A DNA stretch of 63,222 nucleotides, the filler included, from Bonamia ostreae (lineage: Eukaryota): assembly GCA_040357525.1 (NCBI GenBank). It is 26 parts of 26 records of this genome, joined end to end, with 100 filler letters (N's around TTAATTAATTAA, not from the genome) between each part and the next. Parts side by side here need not be neighbours in the genome. Positions count along the whole stretch, not along the records: positions 51,224 to 53,547 come from JBDODL010000905.1; 25 more parts are not named here. The stretch is one strand, 5' to 3'. Under the pieces are notes generated by a model, which was not told the origin of the DNA, made no database searches, and was given only the letters and a program-made list of their open reading frames with translations. Shown here piece by piece: positions 14,706 to 53,759 of the stretch; within the stretch, counting starts at the first letter, position 1; each line of letters begins with the position of its first letter. The position numbers and the translations under genes are program-made.

Positions 14706-14975
14706 ACTATCGATACTTGTAATCCTTCCCGACAAACACAGTCTGTTTTAAAATGAATGAGCAGAAAACTCGCTTGTTACCACCTATCCCAACACTCGTC
14801 GGCGGACACAACACCAGCACATCCGTCTCTCCCTCTTTCAAATACGCATCATCACGTGTCATTGACTTGTACGCAATTCGTCCGTCTCTCTAACTGAAGG
14901 GCAGGATAGATCGCCCAAGACGCCCAGTTCCTTCCTAAAACGGCGCATGCTGAATCACCTTGCCGACAAATTCTA
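14706..14975 (+). CDS. Possible 3' end of a hypothetical gene
   Basis: Two intron-like segments (gtaatcc...cacag; gtccgtctctctaactgaag) join an open frame ending LADKF*; no homology recognised. Confidence 0.3.
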
Positions 14976-15177
14976 ATGCTGGGATGCGTTTAAAATTTAA
15001 AAACATTAAAGTCAGAGAGAGATATTCAACCCATAAAGCACTGAGTGCATGGAGTGGCCGAAGGGAAATTATCCGAAAAGCTTGTACGAAGAATGGTTCA
15101 ATAGTCGCTAACGGTTTTATGGTCAGCAAGGAAATCTAAATTATATTTTTATTATATAAATAAAGGCTAACTTGGAA

Positions 15178-15964
15178 ATGGCGACGAGTTTACTTTTCTA
15201 AATATCTGCATAAAAGAACTATCCTTCGAGAACACGGACGACATTGGAGTCTACGCCTTATTGAGCAACGCTTACTGCCTCGTCGGACAAGGCAGCTGCG
15301 AGAACTTCTACAGTGCGTTCGACGCGGAGCTGTCTTCGCACGTTCCTGTTATCCGGTGCACAATCGCGGGCATCAGAACGGTGGGGAGCCTGGCAGTCGG
15401 CAACAAGAACGGTCTCTTGCTGCCGAACTCGATCGCCGACTCGGAGCTGGCCCATCTCCGGAATTCTCTCCCCGATTCAGTCGTCGTTCGCCGCATCCCT
15501 GAGCGCTACAACGCGCTTGGCAACGTTGTCGTGAGCAACGACCACATTGCCCTGCTCCACCCCGGGGCCTCCAAGGAGACGGAGGAGACCATATCCGACA
15601 CACTCGGGGTCGAGGTGTTCCGCCAGTCGGTAGCAGGAAGTGAGCTGGTCGGATCCTACTGCGACTTGAGCAACCTGGGCGCCCTGATGCACCCGGCGAC
15701 TACGAGCGAGGAGCAAGAAGAACTACGCGCGCGCCTGCAAGTGCCGGTGGTCGCGGGGACGATAAATAGAGGGACCACCCCTATCTCGAGCGGACTGATA
15801 GTAAACGACTGGGATTTGAGACTAACTTTCAGCGCGCCTTCTGCGGCGGAAGCACCACCGCGACCGAAATGTGCACCGTCGAAGGCATTTTCAGACTTAC
15901 GGAAGGCGAGCAGGAAGAGGTTATCAAAAGCCTGAGAGGGGCTCTGATAGATGAATTGCTATAA
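15178..15964 (+). CDS. EIF6: Eukaryotic translation initiation factor 6
   Basis: MATK|LSFENTDDIGVY...GNKNGLLLP...VAGTINRG...VNDW|RAFCG...TTATE; introns 15188-15216 (GT-AG) and 15813-15832 (GA-AG). Confidence 0.97.
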
Positions 15965-16527
15965 ATGCTTTTACTCTTTTTATTACAATTCATCGATGGG
16001 CGTAAATTTTAAAAATTATTGATTCAGAACTGCAGTGCGGTAACTAGAAGAAATGAACGCGCATCCAATGCGAGTTTAGTTCCACTTTATCTAAAATTTT
16101 GAGTTTTATTCAACATATTTTCTTTCACTCGCAACGGCATCTTTTCGACGCATTCGCGATTTAAAGTCAAGAAATTTTTTATGGGATGCTCCAGGGGGAA
16201 ACCAGTTGAATAAATTCGACTTAATGATAATTTTTTTATTGAGATCTTCTTGTCCCTCTGAATATAACTCAAGAAGTTCATGTTAAATTGCCACCCAGAT
16301 AATTTGCCACCCAGACCACGAAAAATTACGGTAAAATGATTCAAAAGAAAAATCTTGACAAATAAATTCTGAATTTTTAGAAGTGAATCTGTGAAGCGTG
16401 TGCACGCAATGATTATAATATATGTAAACTTTTTATCTATAAAAATTAAAACATATTTTTTTTATTCAAATACGAAAAATATATGATTTCCTTATAAGAA
16501 GCAAACCGCGTGCATAATTTTTGAGGG

Positions 16528-16835
16528 ATGACAGAAAATTCTGATATCGAAAAAAAGGATAGACGAAGGATACAGAACAGAATAAACGCTAAGCGATTCA
16601 GGGATCGCCATAAACACCGGATGCACAATTTGTTGGATGAAAAACAGAAGCTCCCTGGCCAAATAATGATATTGCAGTCTCAACTTGAAAATCTACGCAA
16701 AATAAAACGATCGGAAATCGAATTGTTGCGAGAAAAAAACGAAGTAGAGTCGATTAGAATCAGAGACTCGTTTTTTTATTAGATTTTAGTTTCCAAAAGC
16801 TTATTATGCTAGGAAAGAAGTATGGAATTCGATAA
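16528..16835 (+). CDS. Small bZIP transcription factor
   Basis: RRRIQNRINAKRFRDR basic region plus heptad leucines; probable 20-nt intron 16770-16789. Confidence 0.8.
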
Positions 16836-17150
16836 ATGTCTTTATTATTGTTCTTTGTTCGAAAATTTGCAACTTCTTGCAAATTTAAACGTCTTTCATT
16901 ATTTCCAAGTTGCTTTATTTTGATTATTGCAAGTCATTTATTGTTCGACATGTTGATTATCTAAAGTTCAACTTGTTTGCAGACAAAAACTTTAAAGCAA
17001 GATTTTATCTAGATTTTCGGCTTGTTAATTTGTCAAAAATTCTTTACACANNNNNNNNNNNNNNNNNNNNNNNNNNNNNNNNNNNNNNNNNNNNTTAATT
17101 AATTAANNNNNNNNNNNNNNNNNNNNNNNNNNNNNNNNNNNNNNNNNNNN

Positions 17151-48618: not shown

Positions 48619-48803
48619 GTTATTTCTTGAATTGTTGATTTCCATATTTAACTCGACAAAAACAACAATTTTTCGAAAACAACAAATTTCCTTTCATAGN
48701 NNNNNNNNNNNNNNNNNNNNNNNNNNNNNNNNNNNNNNNNNNNTTAATTAATTAANNNNNNNNNNNNNNNNNNNNNNNNNNNNNNNNNNNNNNNNNNNNT
48801 ACT

Positions 48804-49907
48804 TCACTTCCGATACTTAATAGCTTCGTTCGCTATCCACATGAAAAAGCTGATTTTCTTCACCGACTGCGTCGAAATCTCGCGATGGCGCAGCCCCATC
48901 TGCCAAAGCATCTCCAACAAGTTCACCGCGAAAACCGCCTTCCTGCTAAGCCGCAGCCCTTTCTCTTTCTCCAAAATCCGCTCGGCCGCCAACAGCGTCC
49001 GCCGGAAATACAAATTTCGGAAGCGAGTTTCCAAAAACGCTTCGTGCGGCATTTTCTCGCGCTGCTCTGCGCTCAGAACGTGCGCTTTGTTGAGACAAAA
49101 CATCGAATAGATCTTCTCTGCCCACCTTCTCTCCATCAGATCGGCGACATCGCCGTCCATCTGCAACTCGATTTCTAAGAAGACGCGCGCGGCCGTTTCG
49201 ACGGAGAACCTTTTCTCCGAGCGCGAGCAAACAGAGCGGAGACGCTTTGTCCCGGCCGCGTCCGCGCTGAAGTCGACGACTCTGCAGGGTTGGATGGCTT
49301 CCCAGCGCAGATCCTTCATGAACTTGCAAAAGAAGTGCTTTGCGTCCGGCGTCAATGGCCGGCGAAGCAGTGATTTGGAAACGAAGATTTCAAATTTGTC
49401 GCTCGAAGTCGATTTTTGCAGATTTTGGCTCGCTTTCAGCAGATTTTGGCTGTTTCCGACAAAATTTTTCAAACTTTTGGCTTTTTTGTCGATTTCCCGG
49501 TTGTTTTGAACAAAAATTTTGCTTTTCGCTGATTTTCTTAAAAAGGAACTTTGCCCTTTTTTCGAAGCGGTTTTGGTTGAAGTTTGACTGTTTTTGATTG
49601 TTTTTTTGGTTTTGTTTTGGCTTTTTGGTTTTACATGAATTTTTGATTTCTGTTCAAAAATTTTCTTATTCTGGAGTTGGCGACAAAAAGGATTTTCTAT
49701 TTTCTTGTGCGGACGGCCATTTTCACTCGAAAAAGCAGATTTTGTTTTTCTGTGAATATTTCCTTCTTTACTCGACAAATCCGCAGAACCGCCATTTAAA
49801 GTTTTTCGGCCGTTGTCGCGGTCTTTTCCGACCTTTTCTTCTGCCATTTTGAGTCTCATCACAGGATTTTGCATTTCGTAGAAGCTTCCAATCGAATGTC
49901 GCCACAA
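48804..49907 (-). CDS. Hypothetical protein (basic disordered N-terminus, helical C-terminus)
   Basis: 367-codon ORF; start probably ATG 49847 or an ATG just upstream. Confidence 0.65.
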   Translation of the reverse strand: MWRHSIGSFYEMQNPVMRLKMAEEKVGKDRDNGRKTLNGGSADLSSKEGNIHRKTKSAFSSENGRPHKKIENPFCRQLQNKKIFEQKSKIHVKPKSQNKTKKTIKNSQTSTKTASKKGQSSFLRKSAKSKIFVQNNREIDKKAKSLKNFVGNSQNLLKASQNLQKSTSSDKFEIFVSKSLLRRPLTPDAKHFFCKFMKDLRWEAIQPCRVVDFSADAAGTKRLRSVCSRSEKRFSVETAARVFLEIELQMDGDVADLMERRWAEKIYSMFCLNKAHVLSAEQREKMPHEAFLETRFRNLYFRRTLLAAERILEKEKGLRLSRKAVFAVNLLEMLWQMGLRHREISTQSVKKISFFMWIANEAIKYRK

Positions 49908-49964
49908 TTTTTACGTTTAGCAATTTACGTTTTGCTCAAATTTACAAAATATTTGGACAGTCGT

Positions 49965-50723
49965 TTATTCCCCGTTCTCGTTGGCTTTGTCGAGAGTTCT
50001 GCTTTCGGCCTCCGCCGAGCGCTCCTCGGCGGAGGACTGCTCGGCTGCCTCCTGCTGTTCAGCCACCTCCGTCGGCCGTTCTCCGTCTTCACCAAAGTCC
50101 TGCTGGCTCTCCGTCTGAGGATCCTTCTGCTCCTCCTCCGCGCCGGACCCGCTCATCGCCCTTTCTAGTTTCCCGACGCGTTTCTGGACTTCCTCGAGGA
50201 CGAAGTTGAGGCTGTCCACCTTCTTGTTGAGGTTCCCGACGAACTCCTGGAGGTTGAGGTCGGGCATCAGATAGTGGTGCGGGTAGTCCATTTTGATCAT
50301 CACGTGCTTGTTCTCGACAGGTGGTGGCGGCGGCGGAGGCGTTTCGATGGCCCCCTTCGCGTCGGCGAGGGAGAAGTTGTAGGGGTCGAAGTTCTGCTGC
50401 AACTTGTAGCGCGCGGCGGCTGCGGCCTTCTGCTCCTGGTCGACCGAGGCGCTCATCCGGGGACGCAGCACCTCCGACATTCTGCTGCTCTTGGGCTCGA
50501 AGGAGTCCGGCCGCAGGACGGAGGGGCTCTTGTCGTAGTTGGGCGGAGGAGGCGGCGTTTCGTGTACTTGGCTCTCCGCCTTTTGGTTTTCCGAGTCGTC
50601 GGGTTGGCCCATTTTTACAATCTTGTCTCCCGCCGGGTCTTCCGCCGAGATCCCGTGCAGCACTCGCATGCGTTTTCTCTTCCTTTCTGCAACTTTTAGT
50701 TACGTTGTGTTATTATTACCCAT
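49965..50723 (-). CDS. Proline-rich / coiled-coil hypothetical protein
   Basis: ATGG, 27-nt intron 50693-50719, then a long GC-rich exon. Confidence 0.7.
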
Positions 50724-50833
50724 GAAGCCCTGATTATTATTTAGTTGAAAGCTAATTTGCGAATTTTATATAATGATTTGTTAAGCTGAACGGAAGTTTA
50801 TTATATGAATCGCTATAAGCAGATTTTTGTTGT

Positions 50834-51054
50834 TTAAGATTTTAAGTCGATTAAATTTTGGAACAAACTTCTAATCGCGTCTGGAATGGCCTTGCAATGT
50901 TTTTTGTGCGATATTAGTTGGAACTCTGAAAAGGCTCTAAATGCGCAGAACTCGCATCGGAAGTAGTCCTTGTTGTGTGTCAAACAATGTCTGTCTCTGC
51001 CTTGTTTCGAGCAGAACGTCTTTGGACAGTGAGTACAAAAGAACGGCCTTTCTC
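50834..51054 (-). CDS. C2H2 zinc-finger protein, last exon
   Basis: GERPFFCTHCPKTFCSKQGRDRHCLTH...FRCEFC...LISHKKHC; absent from ORF track. Confidence 0.85.
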
Positions 51055-51223
51055 CTTTATTTTATTGTTTTGTTGCTTTGCCAAAACGGAGATTTTTTGT
51101 TTTAGAATATTTTAACAATTTTTNNNNNNNNNNNNNNNNNNNNNNNNNNNNNNNNNNNNNNNNNNNNTTAATTAATTAANNNNNNNNNNNNNNNNNNNNN
51201 NNNNNNNNNNNNNNNNNNNNNNN

Positions 51224-52035
51224 GACGCGGAGAACTTTGTGCGCCAGCTCTTAGTCACACCAAGCGATAGCTGCTATGTTTGCGTAGCCAAAGGCGGTTT
51301 GAACAAGTACCACCTTTTGATTTGTCCCAATAAACATCTAAATTCGGTGCAATGCTCTAAAAACGAGACCGTCAAAGAAGAAATCGAAAGGTTCTGATTT
51401 AAAATTTAGCTTTAAAAACTTGTTGAGAAAATCAGCGAAAAACATGAAAAAAGAAGTTTTGTTTTGGGGGAGAGTAAGTGACCCGGCGACTATAATAAAA
51501 AACCGTTTGCCGTTCAACAGCCATCATTCGTTCGTCGAAGCCATTTTTGTCGACAAAACGGAAAAGGACAAAATTTGTGAAAATTTTCTACAAAAGTGCA
51601 AAACCGCGAACTTGAAAATTTTGGTCGATGTTGAAATGACTAATTACCAAAATTTGCAAGTTTTTAGGGCCAAAAATCAATCTGTCAAATTTTCAAATTT
51701 TTATTTTCAAACTTTATTAATGTCCAAAAAAGCTTTATTTTTACGAAATAAAATTTGAGTAAATTTTATATTTCCATTTTTCGAATAATAGGAAAATATG
51801 AGCGCGCACATGTACATAGAAACCGAGAAGAGTAGATTGCATGTGAGCGAAATGCCGCGCGACTTCTCAAGAGGGGTGATTTTCATAAGGTTTGATGGCT
51901 AACTTTAGGGAGGTTGTTGTCGATTCGCTGGGACTGGGTCAAAGATTAGTTAATTGGAGATCTTGTGTTAGATCGGAACAAGAAGAATCTGAATATGTTG
52001 ATATGTGGAGGAGAATAGTTAGTTCTGTTGTTTAG
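51224..52035 (+). CDS. CWF19L1: CWF19L1/Drn1 (CwfJ domains), C-terminal part
   Basis: CYVCVAKGGLNKYHLLICPNKH...FIR|EVVVDSLG...NWRSC...EE; 19-nt intron 51890-51908. Confidence 0.85.
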
Positions 52036-52353
52036 GGACTTCATAAAATTTTTAAAATGGATTTAAAAATGAACAAAATATTATCAAAAATCAATATAAA
52101 AAACGATATTAATTTTACGTCAAAAATAATTGAAATGGTCATCAAAACATTGATAAAATAATTGGTAACTCAGATTTTACAAATATTCTTAAAGTTTAAT
52201 AAAATCTTTTTTATTATAGTTTTCAGGTTTGTGTTGAGAATACATCTTAATAAGTTTATTTTTTTCAATTTTTCTTATATCGGCAGTAGCTTAACAATCC
52301 AAATTTATCCAAATATCTCTGAATTCAACAAACTGAAAAACTTAAGCTTAAAA

Positions 52354-53387
52354 ATGTCGGATTCGTTAAAAAAGGAGTTTACCTGTGACATGTGCAAAAA
52401 GCCCTCTACTTCTGCGAAGATTTGCCGTTGCAAAATGGCGATCTATTGCGATGAAGAATGCCAAGCGAAGCATTGGGACAAACATAAAAAAGAGTGCGAA
52501 AAATTCAGACATCTTTTCAACAAAAATTCAGACATCTCTTCCGATTCGTCCGATTTTGCAGATTTTGAAATACCGCGCGACACAAAAACTGATTTTGACG
52601 AATTGGACATTTTCGAATATTTTGAAAATTCGCAAATCGACGATTTTTGCGATTTCGAGACAGCGCAAACCCCGAAAATCTCCAACAACGAAAAAGATAT
52701 CGAAAAGCCGAAAACCCAAAAAAGTCCAGAAAACAACAATTTGTCTGTGATCGACGAATTCGAAGATTACGAAAAAAAATCAAATTTGGACGCCGAAAAC
52801 AGATTCGTTCTCAACTTAAGCGATTTCAACGAATACAATTTCACGGAAGGAATCAAGAAACTGCTCCTCAAATTCAAATTCGACGAAAGCAAGTTAATTC
52901 CGTTCCCAAAAATGCGCGACAGTTGGGAAATCAAAAATCTCGACGTCATGCCACCAGACGGGACGTTCATGTTATTTGAAAGGAGTTCGCTCAAGATCGA
53001 TAACTTTTTGTCTGTGACTTTTTACGCCGATTTTCTGCCTGCAAAATGTGCCGTGCGAGAAGCGCATTTCCAAACTTTGAGGGCCAAGAAAAGCGATCGG
53101 AGCGCGTACGAACATTTTTACAGACGAGAAGAAAAATTGAGAAGAAGAGAAAGAAAAATGAGCCGATTTTACAGCGAAGCGATATCGCAATTTTTGCGTA
53201 ACGGGATCAAAGTAATCAATTCGTTCAGATCGGACGTTAATGGCATCTACAGATTCGCTGGTCACAGCAACTCTCAAATCAAGAACAACTCTTGTTACCT
53301 CGTCAAAGCTCCTTCTGCCGAAATTCATCAAACGCTGCACAGCATCGGCAATTTTGACGAGATCGATGATTTGGTCAAATTGGTCAA
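52354..53387 (+). CDS. MYND zinc finger fused to a cellular (RNAi-type) RNA-dependent RNA polymerase, 3' truncated
   Basis: CDMC...CRCKMAIYCDEECQAKHWDKHKKEC, then in the same frame FLSVTF...LRNGI...YRFAGHSNSQIKNNSCYL...IGNFDEIDDLVKLVK and a GT donor at 53388. Confidence 0.8.
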
Positions 53388-53759
53388 GTTTTTGCGTTTT
53401 CGTAAAAAATTTGCTCTGTTACATATGTCGATTAGAAATGTTCACGTCATTTGTAATTTCGTTTATCAATGCAAAAAATCCGAACAAGCTAAATAATTTG
53501 AAATGGTTCTGAAACATTAGCAGCTTCCAATAAATCTTATCTAGAAANNNNNNNNNNNNNNNNNNNNNNNNNNNNNNNNNNNNNNNNNNNNTTAATTAAT
53601 TAANNNNNNNNNNNNNNNNNNNNNNNNNNNNNNNNNNNNNNNNNNNNGAATTTATATTAAATATTAATTATACAAAGTAATAAATGAAAAATATTAAAAA
53701 ACATTTATGAGAGATTCTATTATTATTAAATTCATTATAAAATTTGTATTAAAAGGCTT

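Follow-up and report, generated by a model that had tools for sequence, protein, structure and literature searches.

Two genes lie on the plus strand of a short contig: the 3' part of a CwfJ/CWF19-like gene and, downstream of it, a gene in which a MYND zinc finger is followed by a linker and by the N-terminal region of a cellular RNA-dependent RNA polymerase (RdRP). The contig occupies positions 51224-53547 (2324 bp, 35.7% G+C) of the window, by which we mean the whole stretch of 63,222 bases that was analysed. The window consists of 26 unrelated contigs, sorted by length from 2355 down to 2315 bp, with N44-TTAATTAATTAA-N44 linkers between them (for example at 2356-2455, 51124-51223 and 53548-53647). 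Adjacency of contigs across these linkers is biologically meaningless. The contig in question has a linker on either side, and it is covered in its entirety by a DNA contig of 2633 nt from an independent listing (X1 record 1).

The long ORFs on the other contigs are, by Pfam, ordinary eukaryotic genes. They include genes for eIF-6, an HSF DNA-binding domain, a prenyltransferase alpha repeat, a nucleotide-sugar transporter, a P4-ATPase N-terminus and a PfkB kinase. Two contigs are outliers in composition. One of them, 48800-51123, has 48% G+C and minus-strand ORFs of 368 and 244 aa without a Pfam match; the other is 14706-17050, and the eIF-6 ORF (15171-15932) has 58% G+C versus ~30% elsewhere. 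Given these outliers, the draft may be a mixture of organisms. Part of the contig 51224-53547 is present in 6 of the 24 public runs listed. The 12 runs that share the species label of the best holder contain next to none of the contig's sampled words (three further runs with this label are raw reads and lie outside the index), and the upstream gene's polyadenylated end is in a run labelled as a mollusc metagenome. We take this only as a hint that the contig might belong to some organism associated with the labelled species. None of the raw reads of run X10 fell on the contig, a count that comes from ~6% of the run and amounts to no test.

The upstream gene (51224-52035, +) was assigned from a Pfam match to CwfJ_C_1 (36.5 bits on 51224-51397) and from the RNA contig X3 record 7, which gives the exons as 51224-51390, 51410-51659, 51792-51889 and 51909-52035. 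No Pfam match to CwfJ_C_2 was found in the last exons. X3 record 7 skips 19, 132 (GT..AG) and 19 bases of the gene, and since these introns are missing from it we conclude that X3 holds RNA. The two 19-base introns, at 51391-51409 and 51890-51908 (+), are themselves of the GT..AG type (GTT...TTTAG) and are removed in the RNA contig. Introns as short as 19 bases are found in few eukaryotic lineages only, and they may be of use in placing the organism. After splicing the frame stays open through 213 codons and ends with a TAG at 52033-52035, from which it follows that TAG serves as a stop. The 3'UTR, from the TAG to the poly(A) site, measures 24 bases: X6 record 9 ends at 52059 and continues as a run of A. 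The first transcript base seen for the MYND-RdRP gene is 52242, ~180 nt from the poly(A) site. A poly(A) site so close behind the stop, together with the next transcript beginning at 52242, means that genes are spaced very compactly.

The MYND-RdRP gene begins, as far as its transcript is seen, with a 5'UTR exon piece at 52242-52253 (+), represented by the 12 loose starting letters of the RNA contig X3 record 8. It is followed by a 33-nt GT..AG intron in the 5'UTR (52254-52286, +), which is missing from X3 record 8, where 52253 is joined directly to 52287. No other in-frame ATG stands between the upstream stop at 52162 and the start codon (52354-52356, +), whose M1 aligns with M1 of P0154, a full-length homologue described below. 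A single stop-free frame of 345 codons runs from 52354 to 53387/8; if followed further, the frame from this ATG meets no stop before 53494-53496 (381 codons including the stop). Measured from stop to stop it comprises 444 codons, and no open frame of the 63-kb window is longer. By chance 345 codons would stay free of stops with a probability of ~3e-12 under the composition of the contig and 1e-10 under that of the ORF itself, and over the same stretch the other five frames contain 6 to 22 stops each. The original prediction of one frame leading from a MYND finger into the start of a cellular RdRP is thus borne out, with both Pfam domains above their cut-offs, and the motifs quoted in it (MYND, the acidic stretch, FLSVTF, LRNGI, YRFAGHSNSQIKNNSCYL and IGNF) are all in the translation. 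The end that it gave, 53387, is right as the last base before a donor-like GTTTTTG; as the end of codon 345 (K) it falls one base short, since that codon finishes at 53388. Both positions are defensible.

The finger comprises aa 11-48 (52384-52497, +). It scores 34 bits against the cut-off of 22.7 with the Pfam profile zf-MYND (PF01753) and covers the full profile (1-39 of 39). A regular expression finds the pattern C-x2-C-x9-C-x-C-x5-C-x3-C-x7-H-x3-C, in which all eight zinc ligands (C11, C14, C24, C26, C32, C36, H44 and C48) are present in C4-C2HC order. The second pair is C-x-C and not C-x2-C, a variant seen in 62 of the 391 fingers of the collected proteins. MYND fingers are protein-interaction modules that bind peptides with proline-type motifs, and the conserved Q and W that follow the sixth cysteine have a role in peptide binding. 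Both residues are present here. In an AF2 model of the window fragment the finger has pLDDT values of ~60-75. The top matches among PDB sequences cover nothing but the finger; SMYD2 fingers are the best (E 1e-4), and ZMYND10 and SMYD1 are also among the top ones. The best finger-only matches among the collected proteins, P0002, P0005 and P0007, have 5 to 10 tandem MYND fingers; two of the three also have a DUF4470 domain, and they come from eukaryotic contigs.

Between the finger and the polymerase part lies an acidic linker with many D, E and F residues (aa 49-140; 52498-52773, +), which AF2 predicts to be disordered, with pLDDT below 50 over aa 48-145. Its GC3 of 0.44 is as in the coding parts, and from aa 88 onwards it aligns weakly to P0003, a relative introduced below.

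The N-terminal region of the polymerase (aa 141-345; 52774-53387, +) is identified by Pfam, by relatives found with HMMER and by AF2. The check with the Pfam RdRP profile, which had been proposed with the original prediction, gives a match: PF05183 reaches 27.3 bits (cut-off 23.8) on aa 215-343 (52996-53382), corresponding to positions 27-123 of the 582 in the profile. The window carries only about one sixth of the RdRP domain. AF2 models a long helical hairpin at aa 228-283 with pLDDT of 80-94, and the strand region that precedes it is also confident.

HMMER was run exhaustively against 1.84 billion representatives, and 277 proteins came out at E <= 0.001. The best 150 of the 277 comprise the protein itself, 146 proteins that match best on the finger end, and three that match on the polymerase part. 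The polymerase-part matches among those listed are P0003 (E 1.3e-31), P0004 (E 1.2e-21) and P0006 (E 1.3e-19). P0003 (696 aa), a protein of the EukProt set for the foraminifer Nonionella stella, is the nearest named relative, with 33-36% identity. Its Pfam score for RdRP is 331.8 bits, it has the GGDLDGD motif, and it aligns to aa 88-345 of the window protein with 33% identity (E 5e-40). P0003 has no MYND finger; it begins inside the region equivalent to the linker and may be 5'-partial.

P0154 is more informative. It is a protein of 1091 aa from a 3438-bp contig of a public run assembly. Pfam places zf-MYND on aa 10-49 with 26 bits and RdRP on aa 190-725 with 330.6 bits, and the RdRP is complete, including GGDLDGD. 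Its residues 4 to 310 align to aa 5-345 of the window protein with 135 of 343 positions identical (39%, E 7e-67), and the alignment is collinear across finger, linker and polymerase. Compared by sequence with PDB entries, P0154 matches Arabidopsis RDR2 over aa 264-729 (E 3.3e-51) and QDE-1 with E values of 6e-16 to 4.5e-15. An AF2 model built from a 16-row alignment (mean pLDDT 62.6) has a folded finger (~72-80), disorder at aa 47-113 (<50) and a confident core at aa 114-750. In a Foldseek search of known structures this model is closest to maize RDR2 (7w82, E 8.5e-32), then to Arabidopsis RDR2 and then to QDE-1 (~1e-25). The window fragment, modelled alone, has the same plan: finger, low confidence over the linker, strands, and a hairpin at 85-94. 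The two proteins therefore share the order of MYND finger, disordered linker and RdRP. P0154 differs in being full length, in having a shorter linker and in possessing an extra C-terminal region.

This last region of P0154 (aa 726-1091), which includes ~340 residues with pLDDT below 50, deserves brief mention. No Pfam family scores above threshold in the C-terminal 366 aa, zf-CCHC reaching 12.9 bits against a cut-off of 20.8. Near the end there is a knuckle-like motif, C-x2-C-x4-H-x4-C.

A tree of the shared region places the window protein next to P0154 as its sister (87/91), and together with P0003, P0004 and P0006 they form a group of five rows (91/96). The alignment had 16 rows, of which the tree keeps 14, without P0157 and P0164, which were too short.

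Transcript evidence for the gene comes from X3 record 8, which is 3997 nt long with a word depth of 99.5. It matches 52287-53540 without gaps and with 3 mismatches. As the 33 bases that it skips in the 5'UTR begin with GT and end with AG, it derives from spliced RNA. Far from being split between transcripts, the two domains are spanned together, and one RNA-derived contig covers 5'UTR, finger, linker and polymerase part. X3 record 8 extends 2731 nt past the DNA contig, leaving 2883 nt after K345, compared with ~2343 nt for a remainder like that of P0154. It diverges from the DNA at 53540, 7 bases short of the contig end, and several X1 DNA contigs share only the last 20-30 bases of the contig (53518-53547). 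From these overlaps and the departure of the RNA, the contig probably stops at 53547 because of a fork in the assembly graph.

What happens at the 3' end of the open frame is central to the interpretation. Family homology ends exactly at K345, where four relatives go on with IGLLF(S/T)TVK; no segment resembling it was found in any frame from K345 to the contig end. The continuation of the frame beyond 53388 contains two in-frame stops, TAA at 53494-53496 and TAG at 53518-53520. When the in-frame tail was compared with the four relatives, 704, 933, 885 and 376 of 1000 shuffles scored as well. An attempt to read the tail segment FALLHMSIRN as the continuation of IGLLFTTVKS was dropped, the shuffles showing no significance. 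GC3 falls from 0.44-0.57 in the coding parts to 0.26 after 53388. The GTTTTTG that begins there after AA resembles the verified donor CAA/GTTTTTAGG at 51660, which belongs to the 132-base intron on the same contig. It is at the K345 point, too, that P0004 ends and P0164 begins. Because of the loss of homology, the drop in GC3, the likeness of the donor and these borders in P0004 and P0164, we regard 53388-53547 (+; donor AA/GTTTTTG, phase 2) as the beginning of a probable intron that runs off the contig end. Against this, X3 record 8 is unspliced at 53388 and so keeps the TAA at 53494 in frame; the copy may either retain an intron or be truncated.

The original prediction also placed the catalytic part beyond the contig end. 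This agrees with what we find: the contig ends at 53547, and a tblastn search with P0154 located the catalytic DxDGD neither on this contig nor on the other 25, the only match in all 63 kb being 52366-53439. The motif would be absent from the contig because the gene runs off it, and with a window made of 26 unrelated contigs the catalytic part would lie off the contig.

Our preferred reading, to which we give a probability of about 70%, is that 51224-53547 contains the 5' end of an expressed RdRP gene of the RDR2/QDE-1 type with a MYND docking finger, and that the remainder of the gene, DxDGD centre included, would be found past the probable intron starting at 53388. An unlikely alternative, and the strongest competitor, is that the copy is truncated: either a transcribed pseudogene or a gene for a 380-aa protein made of MYND finger, linker and RdRP N-terminus and lacking the catalytic centre. 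Such a protein could be at most a decoy or a regulator, and the remainder of the RNA would be UTR or a merged neighbouring gene. X3 record 8 is collinear with the DNA to 53540, so that both TAA 53494 and TAG 53518 are in the RNA; no frame after K345 looks family-like, as the shuffles indicate; the remainder is on no other contig of the window; and with spacers as short as ~180 nt an assembler could merge genes. Against truncation, all 345 codons are intact with a coding-like GC3, the donor-like GTTTTTG stands exactly where homology ends and matches a donor verified on the same contig, and two relatives (P0004 and P0164) have exon borders at the same point. The remaining length of the RNA contig fits a full-length protein, or a retained intron plus the missing exons, and retention of introns is common in assembled RNA contigs.

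If we return to the gene as the 5' part of a complete polymerase, several suggestions can be made regarding the finger. It is placed at the extreme N-terminus and would be tethered by ~90 predicted disordered, acidic residues to the polymerase's own region of beta-strands and helical hairpin. It may act as a flexible docking arm that grips a short proline-type motif of a partner protein. We favour such a docking arm because MYND fingers are peptide-binding modules and because RdRPs need partners to select their templates. Candidate partners are a scaffold, a granule component or a protein of the small-RNA pathway. Docking would take the polymerase to those RNAs that are to be copied into double-stranded RNA for the production of small RNAs, the core being presumably an RDR2-like enzyme that converts single-stranded RNA into double strands. 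Recruitment seems the likeliest role of the finger.

A more ambitious version can be entertained, tentatively and with considerable doubt. One lineage of eukaryotes with ultra-compact genes might have hard-wired the recruitment of its silencing polymerase, so that a single MYND adaptor, fused in cis on a long flexible tether, docks on a partner with a proline motif and sets the choice of template for small-RNA amplification. Argonautes, granule scaffolds and chromatin proteins would then be candidate partners, whereas plants, fungi and nematodes use separate cofactors.

The original prediction went in another direction, that MYND binds co-repressor or chromatin proteins and could couple small-RNA amplification to chromatin silencing. 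This is speculation and we think it improbable. Several animal MYND proteins (ETO, BS69/ZMYND11, DEAF1 and the SMYDs) do act on chromatin, the finger has its best PDB sequence matches in SMYD2 and ZMYND10, and RDR2, the nearest solved polymerase, works on chromatin-derived transcripts. However, the likeness to SMYD2 is confined to the finger, and for the window protein neither a nuclear signal nor a partner nor any chromatin-related domain was found. MYND is moreover a generic peptide binder, and in small-RNA proteins it is associated with cytoplasmic granules, going by the portions of PMC6411831 and PMC7641849 available to us.

That the fusion is an artefact, two genes standing in frame by chance or a chimeric assembly, is hardly credible: the contig is tiny, the draft fragmented and the linker of low complexity, but X1 record 1 (DNA) and X3 record 8 (RNA) both traverse finger, linker and polymerase part, a single ORF of P0154 shows this order too, and an open frame of this kind has a chance probability of ~1e-10 or less. 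MYND and RdRP are truly fused, in one expressed gene.

How unusual is this architecture? Of the 166 proteins collected, the RdRP core is matched by 17 and the finger by 149, and the window protein and P0154 are the only two on both lists. A MYND finger thus occurs in 2 of the 17 collected proteins with an RdRP core, and in 1 of 13 (P0154) in the profile search. The architecture is therefore unusual, as had been proposed, and within the searches made it is far from common in databases. It is neither unique nor unrecorded: P0154, in another organism, has a MYND-RdRP, and the public record of the window protein already lists both Pfam accessions in its precomputed annotation. We call the architecture rare on the strength of the searches described here. 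In a full-text literature search, judged by titles and the starts of abstracts, no published description of a cellular MYND-RdRP fusion was found, and the part of PMC6396948 at our disposal contains nothing on RdRP accessory domains. With both accessions in the public record, the fusion is recorded, yet as far as searched it is not described.

Other searches for relatives gave little. A word-index search returned none of 2085 candidates as a longer relative and one of 1409, the protein itself, as a near one; these blanks mean little because P0003 was missed too. In two scans of metagenome contigs there were 114 pattern matches, and none was confirmed by tblastn. In the ESM Atlas the window fragment retrieved MYND-only clusters with scores of at most 0.79, and P0154 retrieved nothing usable.

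That the fusion has been kept between two proteins of only 39% identity argues that it is functional. How cellular RdRPs reach the right RNAs is only partly understood, and in each of the lineages studied it depends on separate partners, Pol IV in the case of RDR2 and GTSF-1 in that of RRF-3. For a polymerase that carries its own peptide-binding finger, the ligand of the finger should name the recruiting factor. The window protein also adds a subgroup of RdRPs from poorly studied eukaryotes, the nearest named relative coming from the transcriptome set of a foraminifer.

We know other examples with which the predicted protein can be compared. Plant RDR2 (Arabidopsis 7eu0/7roz, maize 7w82) is like P0154 in sequence and in fold, and aa 215-343 of the window protein match the start of the same Pfam domain. 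RDR2 has an RRM-like fold at its N-terminus, then a beta-barrel and a helical bundle (PMC13650160, in the part accessible to us), whereas the window protein has a MYND finger on a predicted disordered linker before its barrel/helix region. Judging from the titles of PDB entries, RDR2 is recruited through direct coupling to Pol IV. QDE-1 of Neurospora and Thielavia belongs to the same family of double-psi beta-barrel polymerases as P0154; it is a far remoter relative than RDR2, and its PDB entries report no MYND finger.

Another comparison is with the nematode RRF-3, whose N-terminal domain binds GTSF-1, a zinc-finger cofactor; similar cofactors are proposed by the authors for other RdRPs (both points from the available portion of PMC13650160). 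In RRF-3, as possibly in the window protein, the N-terminal region of an RdRP serves for partner binding and a zinc finger is involved. The CHHC zinc-finger protein of RRF-3 is separate, while the MYND finger of the window protein is fused in cis and is predicted to have a different ligand. The other parallel is with animal Tudor proteins. Removal of the MYND finger from Veneno, a Tudor protein of Aedes, abolishes its placement in piRNA granules, which are cytoplasmic (PMC6411831, as excerpted), and eTudor proteins bearing MYND are widespread in animals according to the excerpt of PMC7641849. Veneno and the TDRD1 orthologues, in the same partial sources, resemble the window protein in having a MYND finger near the N-terminus of a protein of the small-RNA pathway. 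They are non-catalytic scaffolds, in contrast to the window protein, whose finger sits on the polymerase itself.
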